Under the pieces are notes generated by a model that did not search any database, had not been told where the DNA came from, and worked only from the letters and a program-made list of their open reading frames with translations. 64,000 nucleotides of DNA from a candidate division CPR2 bacterium GW2011_GWC2_39_35 (GTDB taxonomy: Bacteria; Patescibacteriota; CPR2): assembly GCA_000995065.1 (NCBI GenBank), contig LBWX01000001.1, forward strand, positions 223,563 through 287,562, read 5' to 3'. Each line of letters begins with the position of its first letter. Positions within the stretch are counted from its first letter, which is position 1. Positions 1-9,901 of the stretch are shown here, in pieces. The position numbers were made by a program, and so were the translations under genes.

Positions 1-1030
1 TACTCCGCAAGACGAAGCGGCAGCCGAAAAACTGCGAAAGCTAAATAAACCATGCATACTTATAGTAAATAAGGTAGATAATCCGGAAATAGAGAAGGAG
101 TTGTCAGAGTTCTATTCATTGGGCCTTGGCGAACCGTATCCGGTTTCTGCTATTCACGGCAGAGGAATCGGGGACTTTTTAGATAAGCTAATAAAAGATC
201 TAAAATCAATTGCTGGCAAAAAAATCGAGATACCGGACGCTGATATTTCCATTGCCCTAGTGGGTAGGCCAAATGTAGGAAAATCATCCATTATTAACCA
301 GATATCGGGCCAAAAAAGGGCAATTGTATCAGACATTCCGGGAACAACCAGGGATATTAATATTATTTATGACCAGATTGATGACCTAAAAACAAAGATT
401 ATCGATACCGCCGGCATAAGAAGAAGAGGGAAGATAGGAACAGGAATAGAGAAATTTAGCGTTTTAAGGGCTTTTAAGGCGGTTGACAGCTCCGACACCA
501 CCCTTTTGATACTTGACGCCACAGAAGGCGTTGTAGCCCAGGATCTGCATATTGCCGGCTTTACCAAAGATCTGGGAAAGGGCCTAATCATTATTGTTAA
601 CAAATGGGACCTCATAGAAAAAGACGAAAAAACTATGGATAAATATCTAGCTATGCTTAGAAGCAAGTTCGATTTTGTTTATTTTGCTCCGGTGATATTT
701 GCCTCAGCCTTAACGGGTAAAAATATTGATAAAATTGGACCGCTAGTTAAGCATATTTTTGACGAACAGAATAAAAAGATCTCGACAAGTAAAATCAATT
801 CCCTTATTGAGAAATTGATCCTGAAAAGACCGCCGGGAATGAAAAGAGGAATCCGACCCAAGCTTTTTTACACCACGCAAACAGGTGTTAAGCCACCAAC
901 TTTTACTATTTTCTCGAACCACCCGGAAATGATACACTTTTCTTATATGAGATATTTAGAGAACAATTTTAGAGCCGAATTTGGTTTTGACGGCACACCG
1001 ATAAAGTTTATCTTAAAGGAGAGAGCTTAA
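1..1030 (+). CDS. der: GTPase Der/EngA (double-GTPase ribosome assembly factor), 5'-partial; gene continues upstream of window
   Basis: Frame from nt 2 reads ...LIVNKVDN (G4 of first G-domain), then second G-domain with P-loop GRPNVGKSS, DIPGTTRD, NKWD and a C-terminal KH-like tail; stop at 1030. Confidence 0.9.
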   Translation, partial: TPQDEAAAEKLRKLNKPCILIVNKVDNPEIEKELSEFYSLGLGEPYPVSAIHGRGIGDFLDKLIKDLKSIAGKKIEIPDADISIALVGRPNVGKSSIINQISGQKRAIVSDIPGTTRDINIIYDQIDDLKTKIIDTAGIRRRGKIGTGIEKFSVLRAFKAVDSSDTTLLILDATEGVVAQDLHIAGFTKDLGKGLIIIVNKWDLIEKDEKTMDKYLAMLRSKFDFVYFAPVIFASALTGKNIDKIGPLVKHIFDEQNKKISTSKINSLIEKLILKRPPGMKRGIRPKLFYTTQTGVKPPTFTIFSNHPEMIHFSYMRYLENNFRAEFGFDGTPIKFILKERA

Positions 1031-1584
1031 TGATTGTGTTAGTAGGCCTTGGAAATCCAGGCAGAAAATACGTGAATACAAGACATAATGTTGGTTTCCA
1101 ATTTTTAGATTATTTGGCCAGAGAGGAGCGAACTGACTTTGTTTTAAATAAATACTTTAACGCCGAGATTGCCAGAACCACCATTAAGGATCAGGATATC
1201 TTTATGGTTAAGCCTCAGTCATTTATGAACTTGTCCGGCGCCAGTGTTCAGGGAGTAATAAGCTACTTTCATGTGCCGGTTGATAAGGTTTGGGTAATTT
1301 ACGATGATGTCGACTTGGACCTTGAAACAATACGAGTGAGAAAAGAGGGCTCTTCTGGGGGGCACAAGGGTCTGCAATCTATTATTGATTGTCTTGGAAG
1401 CGCTGCCATTCCTAGGTTTAGAATTGGAGTTAAGACAAAAGCTTTGGAAAAAATTCCCACCGAGAAATATGTCCTTCAGAAATTTTCGCCGGAAGAACAA
1501 AGGACTATCGATAAGGTATTAGAAAAGACAAGAGAGCTTATTCTTAAAGCTCTAAAAGAGGGGATTGCGGACGTCAGCAAGTGA
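1030..1584 (+). CDS. pth: peptidyl-tRNA hydrolase
   Basis: MIVLVGLGNPG...NVGFQ N-terminal signature of Pth, 184 aa, start overlaps der stop (ATGA). Confidence 0.9.
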   Translation: MIVLVGLGNPGRKYVNTRHNVGFQFLDYLAREERTDFVLNKYFNAEIARTTIKDQDIFMVKPQSFMNLSGASVQGVISYFHVPVDKVWVIYDDVDLDLETIRVRKEGSSGGHKGLQSIIDCLGSAAIPRFRIGVKTKALEKIPTEKYVLQKFSPEEQRTIDKVLEKTRELILKALKEGIADVSK

Positions 1585-1686
1585 GATGGGTTAATTGGTT
1601 AATGGGTAAATAGGTGATAGGATATTTAAAGATTTTTTATATTTATAAAGCGATCTATGTATATAGCACAGAAATCAGAAACAAAG

Positions 1687-1716
1687 AAAAAACCCGACTT
1701 ACGCCGGGTTTTTTCC
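1687..1716 (+). terminator. rho-independent terminator downstream of pth (A-run/hairpin/T-run, potentially bidirectional)
   Basis: aaaaaacccgacttacgccgggtttttt: GC stem cccg/cggg flanked by A6 and T6. Confidence 0.6.
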
Positions 1717-2215
1717 GAGTTTGCAAAGGCCTCCCAAATTGCAACAACTGTCGGTTTGACTTGATCTGCCTCTAGTATAATACTAGGCAGACGTGTTGCT
1801 GGGAGAACATTACTAACGAGTGGCCTTAAGGAGGGTGGTTAAGGTCCCGCTCGTTAGTAGGGTTCTCCAAACAACTTTGACCCTTGAAACTTTTTAAAAG
1901 ATATCGGTTACTAATTAATCGACTAGTTATATTATCATATTTTTGTTTTCTTGTCAAGCACTTTTTTATTTACCAACCGTAACAACCGGTCGACGTAGCA
2001 TATTATCAAACTTTCGCTTTATTGTCAAGTGTTTTTTTAAAGCCCCGTTAAAAAAGGTCTTTTTTTAAATAGAAATTGAAAAATAGAATTGAAGTATCTA
2101 AGATTATATTCTTAGTTAGAAACCAGAACTTTCACAGCTACCGGATAGAGCACCATAACCAGCAAAACATCATAATTAGAAAACACTCAGTTCTGTTTTA
2201 AAAGAGTACACAAAA

Positions 2216-2262
2216 AAAATTGCCTTCTGTTCAAGTTAGACTTGTAACAGAAGGCAATCTAA
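2216..2262 (-). terminator. rho-independent terminator of the minus-strand 3973->2279 operon
   Basis: perfect 13-bp inverted repeat attgccttctgtt / aacagaaggcaat with 14-nt loop; on the minus strand it is followed by T8 (plus-strand a8 at ~2208-2215). Confidence 0.75.
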
Positions 2263-2278: not shown

Positions 2279-2827
2279 TTAGAGCCTAGTAGTAACGCCT
2301 TCTAGCGTTTTCTTTAATCGCAATGCGTTATCCTCCAATTGGTGACACTCCATGATTTCTTGTTCAATCTCCGGGATAGCATTAGTAAGAACGGTGTTGC
2401 TTTGTTCAGCACTGTCTTTTCGTGCTTTGACGCGACTTCTTTGTTCTTGGACTTTTGCCGTAACAAGCAAATGATTTTTTTCCGCCATAAACTCGGCAAT
2501 AAACTGCTTCTTAAGAGCAGGCAAGGCCTTCTTTATGTCTAATATCTTTGCATTTGCATAGGCTTCGGCTTCATCCTCCAGCTTCCTAAGCATCTTAAGC
2601 TCGTTGTCTTCGGCGGCCCGCTTGAGCGTTTCTCGTGAACGATAGCGATTTATAACAACAACAAGCAGTACTATCACGATCGGAATTAAAAAGATCGCAA
2701 TATTTGTCGCCATCGCTTTTGTAGAAATAGCGGCTTCAGCGGCTTTTTGAGCAGTACCGGTATCAACCAAAACGGAAGACGGAACTGCGCCCAAAACGAA
2801 CCTTCTTAAATACTCTTTCATTTCCAA
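2279..2827 (-). CDS. hypothetical membrane-anchored coiled-coil protein (one predicted TM segment ~res 40-60, then heptad-like charged region)
   Basis: 182-aa ORF; hydrophobic IAIFLIPIVIVLLVVVI segment followed by K/E/A-rich region; co-oriented 10 nt downstream of the amidase/SLT gene. Confidence 0.5.
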   Translation of the reverse strand: MEMKEYLRRFVLGAVPSSVLVDTGTAQKAAEAAISTKAMATNIAIFLIPIVIVLLVVVINRYRSRETLKRAAEDNELKMLRKLEDEAEAYANAKILDIKKALPALKKQFIAEFMAEKNHLLVTAKVQEQRSRVKARKDSAEQSNTVLTNAIPEIEQEIMECHQLEDNALRLKKTLEGVTTRL

Positions 2828-2836
2828 ACACCCTTT

Positions 2837-3973
2837 CTAGTCCTTATTAGACATTTCTTCTGCAGATTCCTGAAGTGCGATCTTGATTTTGTGCACGTAT
2901 TGAAGCGTCTCCTTATAGGGAGGCACTTTGCCGTATTTAACAACGGCTCCCGGGCCAGCATTATAAGCAGCAAGTGCTAAACTTGAATAGCCGAAAGTTT
3001 CAACTTGCTCTGACAAATAGTTAGCAGCAGCATCAAGCTGGATATCCGGACTGTCTTTATAAGCTGACAAGTCATACTTATTCCCATTCGCGTCTTTCAT
3101 GTTCGCGAGTGTACTCGGCATAACTTGACCAAGACCTAATGCTCCTGATCGCGATCTTGCTTTATAATTCCAACTACTCTCCTTTGACACAAGTTGTTCG
3201 AGTAAAGCAGGGGAGACGCCATACCTAACAGCCTTCCTGTTTACTATCTCAGAATAATACTCGTTGTCCGTCTTTGTCTTTAGCTCCAGCAAATAAGTGT
3301 CAATGTCGTAGGCGTATGCCCAGAGCCGATACCAGGGAAAATTCCTAGCCGGATCTACTTTCCGCCCCTTTGGCCTCGCTGCACGACGATGACTTATCAC
3401 GTTACCTCTTGGAACATCATACTTTTGAGCAATCCACGCAGCACTCTTAATTTGTTCGTCAGTATATGGATCGTATCCGTTACCTAAATTAACAAATTCA
3501 ACACCTATAGTGCTAGTGTTATTAAAGCGCGAATTACTAACGTCACCTGCATGATTTGCTTTGTACCAAGGCGGAACAATGACATAGATCGTCCCATCTT
3601 TGTCGATAAGATAATTGCACGAGATCTTGCTTTCGGTCAGCCACTTTTGGGAGGATTTAAGATCGCCGGCAGTATGATGTAACATCATTCTGTCTGGAAC
3701 CTTCCGCCTCATCGCATTAAGATTGCCTGTCTGCCTGATTTCAACATTAAGTTTCTGCTGAAACCTCTTATTTACAGCCATCACAATCCGTGGCTCACGC
3801 ACCTTCTCTTCTGGACCTTGTGCAATATCAGTTATTCCAACCCGATCACCAACTTCTTTAAGCACATCTATTACTACTGAAGCGTCGATCATTGCACTAA
3901 ACCAGATACAAAGCACCAGGGCTACCAAAAGACACTTAAGCAGCTTTTCAGGTATATTCCTAATGTTTTTCAC
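2837..3973 (-). CDS. secreted bifunctional peptidoglycan hydrolase: N-terminal N-acetylmuramoyl-L-alanine amidase (amidase_2/PGRP-like) + C-terminal lytic transglycosylase (SLT) domain
   Basis: Signal/anchor LLKCLLVALVLCIWF; amidase_2-like HHTAG...CNYLIDKDGTIY...HAG...GVEFVN; SLT motifs ESSWNYKARSRSGALGLGQVMPST and AAYNAGPGAV; locally higher G+C than flanks. Confidence 0.7.
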   Translation of the reverse strand: MKNIRNIPEKLLKCLLVALVLCIWFSAMIDASVVIDVLKEVGDRVGITDIAQGPEEKVREPRIVMAVNKRFQQKLNVEIRQTGNLNAMRRKVPDRMMLHHTAGDLKSSQKWLTESKISCNYLIDKDGTIYVIVPPWYKANHAGDVSNSRFNNTSTIGVEFVNLGNGYDPYTDEQIKSAAWIAQKYDVPRGNVISHRRAARPKGRKVDPARNFPWYRLWAYAYDIDTYLLELKTKTDNEYYSEIVNRKAVRYGVSPALLEQLVSKESSWNYKARSRSGALGLGQVMPSTLANMKDANGNKYDLSAYKDSPDIQLDAAANYLSEQVETFGYSSLALAAYNAGPGAVVKYGKVPPYKETLQYVHKIKIALQESAEEMSNKD

Positions 3974-4362
3974 CTCCTCCTAATCACCAAAAAGAACTAT
4001 TTTACTTTTAATGTGCATGCTAGAACTATTTCCAGCAGCCGAAGCGACCTACTCGAGGTGAAGCCAGTAGGCCGTTTCGACGGCTCGAAGATTAAAAACA
4101 AAAAAGACCCGAGCGGGTCAAGTGGTGATACAAAAGAAAATTTGTACAAAAAAATGCGACCGGTTTCACCACTAGCTCCCCGTGACCATAAGGTGACCAA
4201 ATAATAGGTCACGGATCGAAGCTTCCGCTTTATCCTGCGGGATATTTGCATATCCGTAAGGGATAAAATAATTCTAATTTAAAGTTGTTAACACCGCTAT
4301 TTTAACATTTGGTTGTTTATGTGTCAATAGTTTTCCTGAACCATTTCCTGAACCATTCCTGA

Positions 4363-4506
4363 ACCACCCTCACTTTTTTGTCATCCCCGTGAATACTTAG
4401 GATCCAGAAGGCTTGGGGACATAGTGAGCTTCCCGGATTCCCGCCTGCTCGGGAATGACAACTAGCGTTACTTTTCTTGTTTTTTAAAAAGTGAGGGTGG
4501 TTCAGG
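4363..4506. repeat. G+C-rich ~100-nt palindromic element (copy A, minus orientation relative to copy B) nested inside a perfect 18-bp inverted repeat gaaccaccctcactttttt / aaaaagtgagggtggttc followed by T-run
   Basis: Reverse complement of ~4382-4480 aligns at roughly 80% with ~10015-10112 (gtcattcccg..gcgggaatcc..ggaagc..ccaagccttctggatcc..cacggggatgac); termini gtcat...atgac inverted. Confidence 0.7.
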
Positions 4507-4655
4507 GTTTTTTCTCGGTAATTCCTCACAACCCCCTCGTCACTCAGAGAAGTTCAGACGACGAAGCAATCTCTATTTGATTTGCAAACAGAATACGGCT
4601 ATAGACGTGAAGAGAGGGCCTTCGGTTGAAGACCCTCCTGGGGTAAGCGTTGCTG

Positions 4656-4853
4656 TTATTTCTTGTATGTTAGGTCCCATGCGTCTCGCATGGAAATAAA
4701 TCCGCCCTCACTTTCTACTTCCTTTTGAATTTTTATCGCCTCCCTATGACGATCCATTTCCTCCTTATCTCTTGCAGCCAGAGCGGCAAGAGAAAGATGT
4801 ATTACTACTGCAATCGCAGCAATAATTACGACGGCGTTCATCAGCTTTTTCAT
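4656..4853 (-). CDS. small single-pass membrane protein (65 aa from ATG with AGGGGGAA SD)
   Basis: MKKLMNAVVIIAAIAVVIHLSLAALAA then charged tail; SD agggggaa 6 nt upstream of ATG at 4853; ORF-track version starts further upstream. Confidence 0.45.
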   Translation of the reverse strand: MKKLMNAVVIIAAIAVVIHLSLAALAARDKEEMDRHREAIKIQKEVESEGGFISMRDAWDLTYKK

Positions 4854-5035
4854 AAAAGATTCCCCCTTGAAAGTTTGAGTTTTACAGTGAACGGCTGATT
4901 CGAACCTAATCCCCATTTATTAAATAACAGACAGCAACTTACCCTCTGTCTCTTAATGAGATGAAAATACACTACCACAAAAAACCAAATATGTCAATAC
5001 TATTTTAACCGAGCGATTTGTAATATATTGGTTTA

Positions 5036-6152: not shown

Positions 6153-6893
6153 ATGAAAATCAAATTTCTAGGAACAAGCTCTGCCTTGCCGCTACCAAGA
6201 ATTAACTGTCAAGGAAGACAAATTTGCCTGTCAAAAGACCCCAAAGATCAGCGGCTTAGATCGAGCCTTCTTATTGATAATCGAATACTCGTAGATTGCG
6301 GACCGGATGTTTACACGCAGCTTCTCCGCGCCGGCATGCCCGTTATCGAAGCAATTATTTTTACTCATAGACACGGCGACCATATAAATGGATTCAAGCT
6401 GAATTTTAAAGAACCGCAAACCGCAGAAGTAAAACTTTACGGACCAAAGGAAGTCTTTAAGCGAATTAGAAACGAATATAAGTTTAAGAATTCGGCCCAT
6501 ATATATAAGAATGGGGAAGCGTTGGATTTTGACGCCTTTACCGTAAATCCGCTAAAGATTGATCACGAGGGACTGGATAATTACGGTCTCCTAATATCAA
6601 CGAACAAAAGACTTTTTTACGCGCCGGACATCGAAGCAATCCCAAAAATAACGCTAGAAGTAATAAAAGAGGCCGATATCTTGGTTGTCGACGGTTCTAT
6701 ACTAAATGGGCCGCATTACGGACATATTGGAATCGACCGTCTCTTAGAGATAATAAAACCCTTAAATAAGGAAACTTACTTTACTCATATTGGCATAGGA
6801 AATCCACCTCACAAAGAGCTGGTTAAGTACGTAAAGGAGAAAGGTGGAGACAATTTTAACGTTGCCTTTGATGGCATGGAGCTAGAAATATGA
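6153..6893 (+). CDS. MBL-fold metallo-hydrolase (PhnP/RNase Z-like family)
   Basis: FTHRHGDH (HxHxDH) motif, later D and H ligands (HIGIG); 246 aa. Confidence 0.7.
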   Translation: MKIKFLGTSSALPLPRINCQGRQICLSKDPKDQRLRSSLLIDNRILVDCGPDVYTQLLRAGMPVIEAIIFTHRHGDHINGFKLNFKEPQTAEVKLYGPKEVFKRIRNEYKFKNSAHIYKNGEALDFDAFTVNPLKIDHEGLDNYGLLISTNKRLFYAPDIEAIPKITLEVIKEADILVVDGSILNGPHYGHIGIDRLLEIIKPLNKETYFTHIGIGNPPHKELVKYVKEKGGDNFNVAFDGMELEI

Positions 6894-7810
6894 TTCACTA
6901 TTATCCATTCAGGAAGGGCTACAAAAAACATCCTTATCTCGGAATTACTTATGCTGTTTCGGCAATGCTTGCCGGCTCTATTGCAACTGTGATTATAAAA
7001 TTCTTTAATCACATTCCCAGCCTCCAGATTACCGCTTATTGGCTTTTTATCGGCTCCTTAATTTCTTTAACACTTAACTATTTTAAAGATAGGGAAACGA
7101 AAGTGCTTAAAATTATCAAAAAAAAGCCGAGGTTGCTAATATTACAAACCGTAACTGCTACTTTATCAGCTTTTTTCTTTGTAAATGCCATAAGCCTCTT
7201 AAATCCATCGACTGCAATTTTCGTTTACTCAACAACATTTATTGTAGCCTGCACCTTAATCGGCAAATATTCGTTTGACGATAAATTATCAAAAATCCAA
7301 TATTTTTCCATGTTCGGAGCCTTAGCCGGCCTAACCATTATTACTAAAGATAATTTAGTCGTAAATTCCAACTCTGGATTTATCTCCATCTTTTTAGCCG
7401 CCATCTCGCTCAGTATTAGCGGTTCTATCGTAAAAAAGCATTTTACTCCCGAAGAAACCTTTTCTCTAAACTCACTTAGGAGCTTCTTGGGTGGCGGCTT
7501 CTTATTATTATTAGCTTTGCTCTTACAAGAACCGGTCTTTCCATCGATATCAGCACTCCCGTTATTTTTATTAGGTTTGATGCTCGCTAATGTGATTCAA
7601 TACTCATTTCAATACAAAGCTTATGATTTAGAAAAACTGGAAGTTGTTTCTATTATCGATTCAATGAGGCCTTTTATTGTGCTTATCTTAGCCTTCTTTT
7701 TTTTACAAATTATGCCTAAGGGAACCGAAATTCTAGGCGGAATTATCATGATTGTTTCCGCTTCTTTGTTAATCTTAGGTAATAAAAAACTTGACGAAAT
7801 CGAAAATTAA
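6890..7810 (+). CDS. EamA/DMT-family transporter (10 TM helices)
   Basis: two repeated 5-TM halves, ~300 aa polytopic membrane protein; start overlaps upstream stop (ATGA). Confidence 0.65.
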   Translation: MIHYYPFRKGYKKHPYLGITYAVSAMLAGSIATVIIKFFNHIPSLQITAYWLFIGSLISLTLNYFKDRETKVLKIIKKKPRLLILQTVTATLSAFFFVNAISLLNPSTAIFVYSTTFIVACTLIGKYSFDDKLSKIQYFSMFGALAGLTIITKDNLVVNSNSGFISIFLAAISLSISGSIVKKHFTPEETFSLNSLRSFLGGGFLLLLALLLQEPVFPSISALPLFLLGLMLANVIQYSFQYKAYDLEKLEVVSIIDSMRPFIVLILAFFFLQIMPKGTEILGGIIMIVSASLLILGNKKLDEIEN

Positions 7811-7825
7811 AATATCCTTATACTT

Positions 7826-9901
7826 ATGGCAAAGAACTTACTTATAGTAGAATCGCCTGCAAAGGCCAAGACAATTGAAAAATATTTAGGAAAAGATTAC
7901 CAAGTCAAAGCAAGTTTTGGGCATATTAGAGACCTGCCAAAATCAAAGCTAGGCATTGATATTCATGACAATTTTAAACCTGAGTATATTATTCCCAAAA
8001 AATCCCAAAAAACTGTTAATGAACTAAAAAAATCGGTGTCAGCAGCTAAAAAAGTATATTTAGCCACAGACTTGGACAGAGAAGGCGAGGCTATTTCTTG
8101 GCATATACTAAAAGCAACCGGGTTAGATCATAAATCAGATAAAGTAGATCGAATTACTTTTCACGAAATTACCAAAGATGCAATCCTAGACGCTTTGGCG
8201 CACCCAAGAAAAATAAATAAAGACTTAGTAGACGCCCAGCAAGCAAGGCGAGTCTTAGATAGACTCGTGGGCTACAAGTTAAGCCCGCTTTTGTGGTCTA
8301 AGATAAGAAGAGGCTTGTCGGCCGGTAGAGTTCAGTCAATCGCCTTAAAACTTATTATTGATAGGGAAAGAGAAATTGATAAATTTGTCCCAAAGGAATA
8401 TTGGTCAATCGATGCCATCCTAGAAAAGAAAAAGAAAGAGTTTAAAGCCAGTCTTATATCCAAAAATGAGAAGAAATTAGAGATACATAACGAGAGTGAA
8501 GCAAAAGGCATCTTAAAAGATTTAGAGAATGCGGATTATATAGTTCGAGATGTAATCAAAAAAGAAGTCAAAAGAAATCCTGTAGCACCTTTTATAACCA
8601 GCACCTTGCAGCAAGATGCCGGCCGAAAATTAGGTTTTTCGGCAAAAAAAACCATGATGCTTGCCCAGCAGCTTTATGAAGGAATCGATTTGGGTCCGGA
8701 AAGTCATGTCGGCCTTATTACTTATATGAGGACAGACAGCACCAGTCTATCTGACGCAGCAATTGCAAACATCAGAAAATTAATCGAGTCCAAATACGGA
8801 AAAGAATATGTGCCTTCAAAACCAAGAGTTTTTAAAAAAGCAAAAGCGGCTCAAGAAGCACATGAAGCCATCAGGCCAACTCATATAGAAAAGGAACCGG
8901 ATAAAGTAAAACAATACTTATCAAAAGATCAATATCGCCTCTATGCTCTTATTTGGAAAAGAGCACTAGCCTCACAAATGGAGAGCGCCGTCTTAGATCA
9001 AACTTCTATCGATATAAAAGCCAGTGACTATATCTTTAGAACCACTGGGTCTATCATAAAATTTCCGGGTTTTACCAAAGTTTACGAGGAAAGTAAAGCC
9101 AGGGAAGAGCAAGAAGAAAAGAATGTTCTCCCAGAACTAGACAAAGGAGAAAAATTAAAGCTAGTTTCTCTTACCCCAAATCAGCATTTTACTTTAGCCC
9201 CGCCAAGATATTCCGAAGCAAGTTTAATTAAAGTCCTAGAAGAAGAGGGAATCGGCCGGCCATCAACTTACGCTCCGACTTTAAGCACCTTGAAGGATAG
9301 AGGCTATATTGATGTTATAGACAGAAAACTTCATCCCAAAGAGATTGGTTTTATCGTAAACGATCTTTTAGTAGAAAACTTTTCTAATATCATAAACCTT
9401 TCCTTTACGGCCCAAATGGAAAAAGAGTTTGACGAAATTGCTGAAGGCGACGTCGCCTGGCAGGAAGTGATCAAGCATTTTTGGGATCCTTTTTCTAAGC
9501 AGCTAGAAGAAAAACAAGACACAATTAAAAAAGTAGAAATGCCGGTCCAGATGACCGATGAGATCTGTCCTGATAGCGGCCACCCAATGATAATAAAGCA
9601 GGGAAGATACGGCGAATTCATGGCGTGTTCGGGTTGGCCGGAATGTAAATTTACCAAGCCCTTAGTTAAAGACTTGGGTGTTAAATGTCCGGATTGCCAA
9701 GAAGGGGACATTATCGAGAGAAGAACTAAAAAGGGCCGGATTTTTTACGGCTGTTCTACATTTCCGAAATGTAAATTTGCTTCTTGGGATAAGCCAGCGA
9801 CTAAACCATGTCCGGACTGCGAGGGTTTAATGGTTGAAAAAGGAAAAACATTGCGCTGCATAAAATGCGGTCACGAAGAACAAAAAGAAGATAATAAATA
9901 G
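7826..9901 (+). CDS. topA: DNA topoisomerase I
   Basis: MAKNLLIVESPAKAKTIEKYLG...GHIRDL Toprim, active-site region GLITYMRTDS, C-terminal multiple Cys4 zinc ribbons (CPDSG..C, CPDC..C, CPDCEG..C). Confidence 0.95.
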   Translation: MAKNLLIVESPAKAKTIEKYLGKDYQVKASFGHIRDLPKSKLGIDIHDNFKPEYIIPKKSQKTVNELKKSVSAAKKVYLATDLDREGEAISWHILKATGLDHKSDKVDRITFHEITKDAILDALAHPRKINKDLVDAQQARRVLDRLVGYKLSPLLWSKIRRGLSAGRVQSIALKLIIDREREIDKFVPKEYWSIDAILEKKKKEFKASLISKNEKKLEIHNESEAKGILKDLENADYIVRDVIKKEVKRNPVAPFITSTLQQDAGRKLGFSAKKTMMLAQQLYEGIDLGPESHVGLITYMRTDSTSLSDAAIANIRKLIESKYGKEYVPSKPRVFKKAKAAQEAHEAIRPTHIEKEPDKVKQYLSKDQYRLYALIWKRALASQMESAVLDQTSIDIKASDYIFRTTGSIIKFPGFTKVYEESKAREEQEEKNVLPELDKGEKLKLVSLTPNQHFTLAPPRYSEASLIKVLEEEGIGRPSTYAPTLSTLKDRGYIDVIDRKLHPKEIGFIVNDLLVENFSNIINLSFTAQMEKEFDEIAEGDVAWQEVIKHFWDPFSKQLEEKQDTIKKVEMPVQMTDEICPDSGHPMIIKQGRYGEFMACSGWPECKFTKPLVKDLGVKCPDCQEGDIIERRTKKGRIFYGCSTFPKCKFASWDKPATKPCPDCEGLMVEKGKTLRCIKCGHEEQKEDNK

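Follow-up and report, generated by a model that had tools for sequence, protein, structure and literature searches.

What controls the production of a wall-cutting enzyme in an ultra-small bacterium, and where do its genes come from? This question is raised by a two-gene cassette located between pth and dprA in the candidate division CPR2 bacterium GW2011_GWC2_39_35, which encodes a bifunctional peptidoglycan hydrolase and a small membrane protein. We analyzed it within a window of 64 kb, the whole stretch of DNA under study (∼84 kb were inspected when the flanks are included). An earlier note, made from the sequence alone, had seen here either a horizontally acquired prophage remnant or a pair of effectors directed at a partner's murein. 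We found that the structured noncoding DNA upstream of the cassette contains a class II cyclic di-GMP (c-di-GMP-II) riboswitch, a feature that this note had missed. We favor, with moderate confidence, the joint reading that the cassette is a chromosomal, c-di-GMP-regulated cell wall hydrolase operon with OFF logic, which acts on the cell's own wall.

The leader of the hydrolase operon

Scoring against Rfam gave a full-length match to the c-di-GMP-II aptamer (RF01786) at positions 4149 to 4235 of the minus strand, on which both genes also lie (71.1 bits against a gathering cutoff of 53.5 bits; E = 5e-14; model positions 1 to 84 of 84). Like known members of the class, the aptamer has the P1, P2, and P3 helices and the pseudoknot-forming strands and is part of a 5′ leader with an intrinsic terminator. 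A predicted sigma-70-type promoter (4299 to 4327, minus strand) lies 64 nt on its 5′ side and consists of TTGACA, a 17-nt spacer, and TG-n-TAAAAT, with 11/12 matches and an extended −10. On its 3′ side, the attenuator follows at 30 nt and the hydrolase start at 176 nt. The attenuator (4096 to 4119, minus strand) is an intrinsic terminator with a GACCC-GCUC-GGGUC hairpin followed by UUUUUUGUUUUU, and 120 nt separate it from the start codon at 3973, an interval in which we found no further minus-strand promoter-like site. Given this layout of promoter, aptamer, and attenuator without another promoter, the upstream structured DNA appears as the leader of the operon, and the riboswitch very probably controls the hydrolase operon in cis.

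Alternatively, the aptamer and terminator could form a free-standing short transcript, acting as a c-di-GMP sponge or small RNA, with the hydrolase being expressed independently. The 120-nt distance would suit such an arrangement, as would the prediction of the window terminator in both states of the aptamer, but the lack of a promoter-like site in the 120-nt gap and the recurrence of the aptamer-terminator-gene order in five organisms make it very improbable.

We then compared the aptamer with other CPR2-type copies. One is located in a contig of CPR2 GW2011_GWC1_39_9 (termed L007), and three further leaders were recovered by pattern scans with the invariant 3′ strand; the covariation set comprised five aptamers (the window, L007, L020 from bacterium CG2_30_37_16, L129, and L133). 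In the Rfam structure, 80.7% of the cells are paired and 7 pairs are double-changed, values that 0 of 500 shuffles reached, while slid controls pair 24 to 41%. Compensatory changes were found in 5/8 pairs of P3, where 95% of the cells are paired; P2 is invariant, and P1 is conserved in its inner 4 pairs only. The pseudoknot strands, UCACC in the loop and GGUGA in the 3′ strand, are complementary and invariant across the five copies, hence without internal covariation. Both differ from the Rfam consensus (UCAC:GUGA instead of GCAC:GUGC), a variant that is common in other phyla too. The other four leaders also carry a TTGACA −35 element, mostly with a TG-extended −10, and an equivalent hairpin with a U-tract 14 to 41 nt past the aptamer; the promoter-aptamer-terminator-gene layout recurs in four organisms besides that of the window.

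A candidate anti-pseudoknot strand, GUAUCACCACU (4121 to 4131, minus strand), ends 2 nt before the attenuator terminator and is complementary to the aptamer segment AGUGGUGAAAC (4173 to 4163). The two segments form an 11-nt inverted repeat with 91% complementarity, AGUGGUGAAAC is invariant in the aptamers, and an 8-bp helix (AGUGGUGA:UCACCACU) is present in every ligand-free fold.

Additional elements surround the promoter and the attenuator. Three direct repeats of GGTTCAGGAA (4332 to 4366, minus strand; 11- to 12-nt spacing) end 5 nt before the −35 element; no other perfect copies occur in the window, and we infer only that they may be a candidate transcription factor site. These repeats overlap a perfect inverted repeat in one of its 21-nt arms (4358 to 4378 and 4486 to 4506, with a 107-nt spacer). 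Just past the promoter, UUAACAAYUU occurs in four of the five CPR2-type leaders (window, about 4292 to 4270, minus strand; L007, about 9945 to 9925; L020, about 6228 to 6245; and L129). Finally, a stable hairpin between the attenuator and the start codon (4038 to 4081, minus strand), not seen in L007, has CACCUC in its loop, the complement of GAGGUG, which spans the last bases of the Shine-Dalgarno sequence and the GTG start, and may add a translational layer.

The hydrolase and its partner protein

The first gene (2837 to 3973, minus strand) begins with a GTG start after AGGAGGAGG and encodes a protein of 378 aa, composed of a signal or anchor (residues 7 to 39), an Amidase_2 domain (residues 92 to 209), and an SLT domain (residues 244 to 350). 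This is the architecture read by the earlier note, and all the motifs that it quoted are present in the protein. The check by domain hidden Markov models (HMMs) that it had proposed placed both domains far above the Pfam cutoffs, with 82.7 bits against 26 bits for Amidase_2 (PF01510; E = 3.9e-23) and 77.2 bits against 21.3 bits for SLT (PF01464; E = 9.7e-22). An alignment with the periplasmic amidase AmpDh2 (4bj4) showed that the zinc and catalytic positions are kept, namely, the His of LHHT, the Glu of GVEFVN, the His of ISH, and the Lys and Asp of RKVDP. Likewise, the catalytic Glu-Ser, GLGQVMP, and AYNAGPG of Slt70-type enzymes are kept, and KESSW, GLGQVMP, and AYNAGPG correspond to invariant columns across 16 aligned SLT domains. 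The protein is assigned to Amidase_2 by the HMM match, the zinc ligands, and the catalytic Glu and Lys, and to SLT by the HMM match, Glu-Ser, G-L-x-Q, and A-Y-N-x-G. In both fold and catalytic residues, AmpDh2/AmiD and Slt70/MltC/EtgA align with the domains of the window hydrolase. With an amidase joined to a lytic transglycosylase, the enzyme could cleave murein at its peptide stems as well as in its glycan strands.

The N terminus of the hydrolase contains a single strongly hydrophobic segment, LLKCLLVALVLCIWFSAMI (Kyte-Doolittle 19-residue mean of 2.52), which may be cleaved at IDA|S and, by inspection, has no lipobox; this indicates that the protein is exported or N-terminally anchored. 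As judged from its residues, this segment is too hydrophobic for a signal-arrest-release signal of the phage type.

We looked for relatives of the fusion with a word-indexed search of 5.8 billion proteins and a full HMMER search of 1.84 billion representatives. The identical protein was found in 17 contigs of CPR2 metagenome-assembled genomes from groundwater and other samples, with the same neighbors in all, and no other protein in either collection matched both domains at E < 1e-30. The proteins that matched the fusion in two stretches have tandem SLT or tandem Amidase_2 domains, with the exception of P0145, the sole Amidase_2 plus SLT combination among the domain-checked proteins. P0145 has a PG_binding_1 domain between the two, whereas they are directly fused in the window protein. 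The closest SLT domains (53 to 59% identity) belong to proteins with a coiled coil of the PcsB/CwlO type. Unlike the FtsEX-controlled hydrolases of this type, the window hydrolase has no coiled-coil domain, and a long helix is found in a separate membrane protein; no ABC-type FtsE or FtsX genes were present within 10 kb.

This membrane protein is the partner encoded by the second gene (2279 to 2827, minus strand), 10 nt on. The earlier note had described a protein of 182 aa with one transmembrane (TM) helix and a long coiled coil; the gene proved real, and its product has the TM segment and a long helix. Read from TTG, the protein has 182 aa, but initiation at the ATG at 2821, preceded by AAAGGGUG, is more likely (180 aa); its length in public gene calls is 171 or 180 aa. 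The single TM segment (residues ∼39 to 60; Kyte-Doolittle 19-residue mean of 3.06) comes after ∼40 N-terminal residues and precedes the sequence NRYRSR and a continuous helix of roughly 115 residues, and the AlphaFold model consists of one helix of ∼160 residues (residues 21 to 179; mean predicted local distance difference test score of 84). The positive-inside rule predicts that the helical rod is cytoplasmic. No homologs of the partner were found, making it an ORFan, and it has no family in Pfam, PHROG (E ≤ 0.01), or NCBIfam; its Pfam and NCBIfam matches are subthreshold and at the level of architecture only (e.g., PspB, 20.8 bits against 51.7).

The gene pair ends at an intrinsic terminator (2212 to 2258, minus strand; arms 2258 to 2246 and 2231 to 2219, followed by T8). 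Folding supported the 13-bp stem already noticed in the earlier note, with 5 further inner pairs and an energy of −28.4 kcal/mol (z = −6.5).

Conservation and origin of the locus

We then looked into the genomic context of the cassette in relatives. A single-query search of genome contigs with DprA gave no match, and synteny was obtained from homolog look-ups. The nearest DprA (48% identical) is that of L007, which is collinear with the window for genes for a histidine kinase and a response regulator, aspS, scpA, scpB, rluB, an S11 peptidase gene, der, and pth on one side and for dprA, topA, and genes for a sigma factor and a TraG-like ATPase on the other. The slot between pth and dprA in L007 contains a c-di-GMP-II riboswitch (56.7 bits) with a terminator, followed by two minus-strand genes. 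The first encodes a secreted protein of 271 aa with a C-terminal WRESSG...GVTQIN at the SLT catalytic motif. This motif aligned to SLT (Pfam, E = 0.022) and to the lytic transglycosylase EtgA (PDB 8urn, E = 0.083), and hhalign with the SLT profile aligned it without reaching significance (E = 0.28), for which reason we call it only probably a divergent, SLT-like lytic transglycosylase. The product of the second gene, 179 aa long, is a membrane protein that has two hydrophobic segments and a helical, charged tail. In a distant Patescibacterium, der, pth, and dprA are adjacent, with neither cassette nor riboswitch.

Since a riboswitch-led cassette occupies the same slot in L007, the locus and its switch are ancestral rather than recently acquired and, by this synteny, predate the split of two CPR2 species with 48%-identical DprA proteins. 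The earlier note had regarded orthologs in the same der-pth-dprA context of all relatives as speaking against acquisition, and this is largely what we found, a two-gene cassette behind a riboswitch at the same place in the nearest relative, although the proteins are not detectably orthologous.

The coding content tells a different story. By its G+C content (GC) of 0.434, the 1.7-kb cassette stretch is in the top 2% of stretches of this kind (0.381 ± 0.023 overall), and in tetranucleotide distance it exceeds every other one in the window (z of about 4; top 0.3%). By gene, GC is 0.432 and 0.436 against 0.383 ± 0.034, and synonymous-codon typicality is low (z = −1.7 and −1.9); at third codon positions, GC is the same as in the flanking der, pth, and dprA. 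The higher G+C content reported in the earlier note is therefore borne out, if moderately, and the compositional comparison that it had suggested does reveal an atypical stretch within the window. The equivalent cassette of L007 is mildly atypical (GC, top 9%; tetranucleotides, top 6%). Because the coding content is species specific and compositionally odd, it has likely been replaced, or is diverging very fast, behind a conserved switch.

The same note had proposed a prophage remnant, and a degraded and horizontally acquired lysis module (endolysin plus holin or spanin) could account for the atypical composition, for domain-level PHROG matches to endolysins and lytic tail proteins, and for SLT domains at 45.6% identity in SPbeta-like phages. 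Phage holin-endolysin and spanin cassettes likewise place a murein hydrolase beside a small membrane protein, and the closest "lysis" precedent for the regulation is the phiCD119-type lysis module, which carries a class I c-di-GMP riboswitch (PMC3649979). However, genes of phages, integrases, or transposases were absent from both the window and its flanks, and the neighbors are housekeeping genes (der, pth, dprA, topA, a sigma factor gene, the dcw cluster, genes for penicillin-binding proteins [PBPs] and tRNA synthetases, dnaB, dnaX, recO, and recR). The PHROG and phage tblastn matches are confined to single domains, no phage record covers 80% or more of the protein, and no viral contig encodes a full-length relative. 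Also unlike in phage cassettes, the first gene is that of the hydrolase, which brings a strongly hydrophobic signal of its own; the partner falls into no holin or spanin family, and no gene for a lipoprotein o-spanin is present. The phiCD119-type module differs further in the class of its riboswitch (class I there, class II here), and here the chromosomal slot is conserved across species, a riboswitch-led cassette being present there even in a relative with a DprA identity as low as 48%. The prophage reading is largely refuted and retains hardly any probability.

Direction of the switch and role of the operon

To evaluate antitermination, transcripts were cut just before the 3′ half of the terminator, and the pairing of the 5′ half was scored against shuffles. 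The partner strands of this 5′ half are the GCUAGUGGUGAAAC strand and/or the P1/P2 5′ strand of the aptamer. The probability of pairing to the aptamer was 0.85 in L007, 0.93 in L020, 0.83 in L129, and 0.62 in L133, and the fractions of shuffles at least as high were 0.02, 0.003, 0.09, and 0.18, respectively. In L129 at equilibrium, the probability of the terminator went from 0.00 in the free leader to 0.99 when the aptamer was enforced, and in 5/5 leaders the folded aptamer does not hinder the terminator. Based on these folding models, the comparison of the five leaders favors OFF, which we consider the probable logic of the switch, although the window's own leader by itself does not reveal it. 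In an OFF switch, ligand binding would lock the pseudoknot strand and P1/P2 and free the downstream complementary strand, and the terminator would form; at low c-di-GMP, transcription would read through and the hydrolase would be made.

An ON switch, with c-di-GMP binding promoting read-through or translation and the hydrolase being made at high c-di-GMP, is possible though distinctly less probable. All four class II riboswitches tested in Clostridioides difficile are positively controlled ON switches (PMC3649979), unlike the OFF switch predicted here. At equilibrium and without ligand, the window leader is predicted to fold into the terminator, and when the aptamer is enforced, AUCACCA (4129 to 4123) can pair with UGGUGAU (3989 to 3983), just 5′ of the Shine-Dalgarno sequence, so that a translational layer is possible. 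Nevertheless, the aptamer neither overlaps nor destabilizes the terminator in the five leaders, and three to four relatives show antiterminator pairings in the ligand-free state. The classical ON design uses the 3′ strand of P1 again in the terminator and was seen in other phyla and in other Patescibacteria; in contrast to these designs of Chloroflexota, Bacillota, and other Patescibacteria, the CPR2-type leaders do not reuse that strand. We dropped an ON design of this kind, as there is no complementary strand downstream.

With OFF logic, the operon would work as follows. From the sigma-70-type promoter, transcription would produce a leader with the c-di-GMP-II aptamer and the intrinsic terminator, and read-through would yield an mRNA encoding both proteins. 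The first protein would be Sec-exported or N-terminally anchored and would combine a zinc N-acetylmuramoyl-L-alanine amidase of the AmpD/T7 lysozyme fold with a family 1 lytic transglycosylase, and the partner may tether or regulate the enzyme. Together, they would constitute a tightly gated autolysin for own-wall remodeling or cell separation at low c-di-GMP. The aptamer and terminator, the domains with their catalytic residues, the single transcription unit, and the conservation of the riboswitch and a cassette at this slot in a relative are established at the level of sequence analysis. That the enzyme acts mainly on the cell's own wall we put at even chances. The window encodes the organism's own murein machinery (FtsQ, MurC, MurG, FtsW, MraY, PBP2, and a class A PBP).

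Besides the C. difficile precedent, several findings weigh against the autolysin operon with OFF logic. In the window leader, equilibrium folding forms the terminator with or without the enforced aptamer, and the antiterminator signal is no better than that of shuffles (probability of pairing to the aptamer of 0.33 to 0.39, with a fraction of 0.45 to 0.5 of the shuffles at least as high). No GGDEF, EAL, or HD-GYP genes were visible in the ∼84 kb inspected, the one HD-domain protein seen being without the GYP motif. The hydrolases of three organisms (window, L007, and L133) are not detectably orthologous. BLASTP between the window and relative proteins revealed no significant similarity other than a 16-residue TM stretch, located at the same position in the partners of the window and L007 (E = 0.002), and since the L007 partner has two hydrophobic segments, the role or topology of the partner may differ between species. 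Lastly, an atypical composition and the lack of an ortholog would be no less expected of a conflict or effector gene than of an autolysin.

With the same operon and riboswitch, the enzyme could indeed, in line with the second proposal of the earlier note, be an effector that, once released or displayed, cuts the murein of a host or partner; this could serve attachment, feeding on wall fragments, or DNA release. Many bacteria of the Candidate Phyla Radiation (CPR) are episymbionts, and c-di-GMP would link wall cutting to a lifestyle switch. The fusion has no ortholog among the 1.84 billion representatives and the partner is an ORFan, the coding content at the conserved slot is wholly different between species, in composition the cassette stands out from the rest of the window, and it adjoins dprA, a DNA uptake gene. 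On the other hand, scans with Pfam, PHROG, and NCBIfam found no secretion-system, toxin-delivery, or immunity signature, and an organism with its own murein machinery also needs autolysins. We regard the effector function as rather unlikely, less so than a phage origin, and retain the autolysin operon as the preferred interpretation.

Additional leaders of the CPR2 type inform on what else the riboswitch may control. In L020, the riboswitch (68.1 bits) is located 5′ of genes for a small unknown protein and a calcineurin-like metallophosphoesterase (6288 to 7510, plus strand), and the order is the same in L128 and L132. In L129 and L130, a CPR2-type riboswitch lies ahead of an RNase III-like gene (852 to 1907, plus strand, in L129). 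In L133, it is followed by the gene for a 68-aa TM/charged protein and then by one whose secreted product scores 21.6 bits for SLT (cutoff, 21.3), and riboswitch, lytic transglycosylase (a probable one in L007), and small TM/charged protein form a trio that recurs in three organisms. The shared riboswitch in front of RNase III-like and phosphoesterase genes hints at a small c-di-GMP regulon, whose genes form a short list with a likely link to the lifestyle switch of these uncultured bacteria. It is improbable, if conceivable, that this CPR2 c-di-GMP-II regulon (the hydrolase cassette, the RNase III-like gene, and the small protein with the phosphoesterase) reads the c-di-GMP of a host or neighbor, without diguanylate cyclases of its own. 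If it did, wall cutting would be timed to partner contact, an ultra-small symbiont would sense a second messenger across species, and the riboswitch would be a fixed "socket" ahead of rapidly exchanged effector genes. Should CPR2 genomes be without diguanylate cyclases, the origin of the ligand would itself become interesting.

How does this locus compare with known systems? The c-di-GMP-II riboswitch class was first described in Clostridia. Here, the host belongs to CPR2 within the Patescibacteria, and a peptidoglycan hydrolase takes the place of pili or adhesins as the target. The aptamer itself is unremarkable for its class; what is new is its association with these regulated genes, with this host lineage, and with a probable OFF logic. 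A full-text search of the literature found no report linking c-di-GMP riboswitches with CPR or Patescibacteria, and for the CPR there is hardly any description of either c-di-GMP signaling or regulation by riboswitches. The ydaO/c-di-AMP riboswitch precedes cell wall hydrolase genes (Rpf type and NlpC/P60) in Actinomycetota and Bacillota and typically terminates transcription when its ligand is bound. It is the closest functional analogue, being likewise a cyclic-dinucleotide leader that gates secreted murein hydrolases, but it differs in its ligand, in an unrelated aptamer fold, and in the enzyme families. The CPR2 locus offers a candidate OFF-type class II switch and a testable handle on how ultra-small bacteria regulate dangerous wall-cutting enzymes, with a textbook class II aptamer that, at a fixed slot, fronts murein hydrolases differing completely between species.

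Other RNAs of the c-di-GMP-II clan were observed in Saccharibacteria and other Patescibacteria (L054, around minus-strand index 7799; L091, 5715 to 5809, plus strand; L127, 3314 to 3412, minus strand). They have an enlarged P3 and score under the Rfam cutoffs (30.7 bits for the GAG variant and 26.6 bits for c-di-GMP-II), and they may represent an undescribed variant. Their 3′ strand, ACCGGUCAC, is reused in the terminator, an ON design, and in L091 and L127 they are located upstream of secreted proteins of 700 to 840 aa with DxDxDG-type repeats.

The noncoding flanks of the cassette (1585 to 2278 and 3974 to 4655) total about 1.38 kb, in line with the ∼1.3 kb of structured DNA described in the earlier note, and they contain real elements: a structured RNA that is conserved, the riboswitch leader, and the inverted and direct repeats. 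An open reading frame 5′ of the riboswitch promoter (4656 to 4916, minus strand) encodes 86 aa (65 aa in public calls) with one TM segment and a charged tail; it has no family, and its architecture is that of the 68-aa protein ahead of the SLT gene in L133. Just 3′ of dprA, a gene of the metallo-β-lactamase fold (6153 to 6893, plus strand) has a precomputed Pfam match to Anti-Pycsar_Apyc1, a cyclic-nucleotide phosphodiesterase family; this gene and the following EamA gene are absent at the same position in L007. The structured RNA candidate, of ∼200 nt (1685 to 1880, minus strand), lies between the cassette and pth and has a minimum free energy of −84.4 (z = −8.5). It has no Rfam family match, its apical loop, CCACCCUCCUU, resembles an anti-Shine-Dalgarno sequence, and it is equipped with its own TTGACA/TG-extended promoters (2028 to 2000 and 1957 to 1929) and terminator (1716 to 1685). 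It is 88% identical to positions 7922 to 8170 (minus strand) of L007, though the DprA proteins of the two organisms share only 48% identity.

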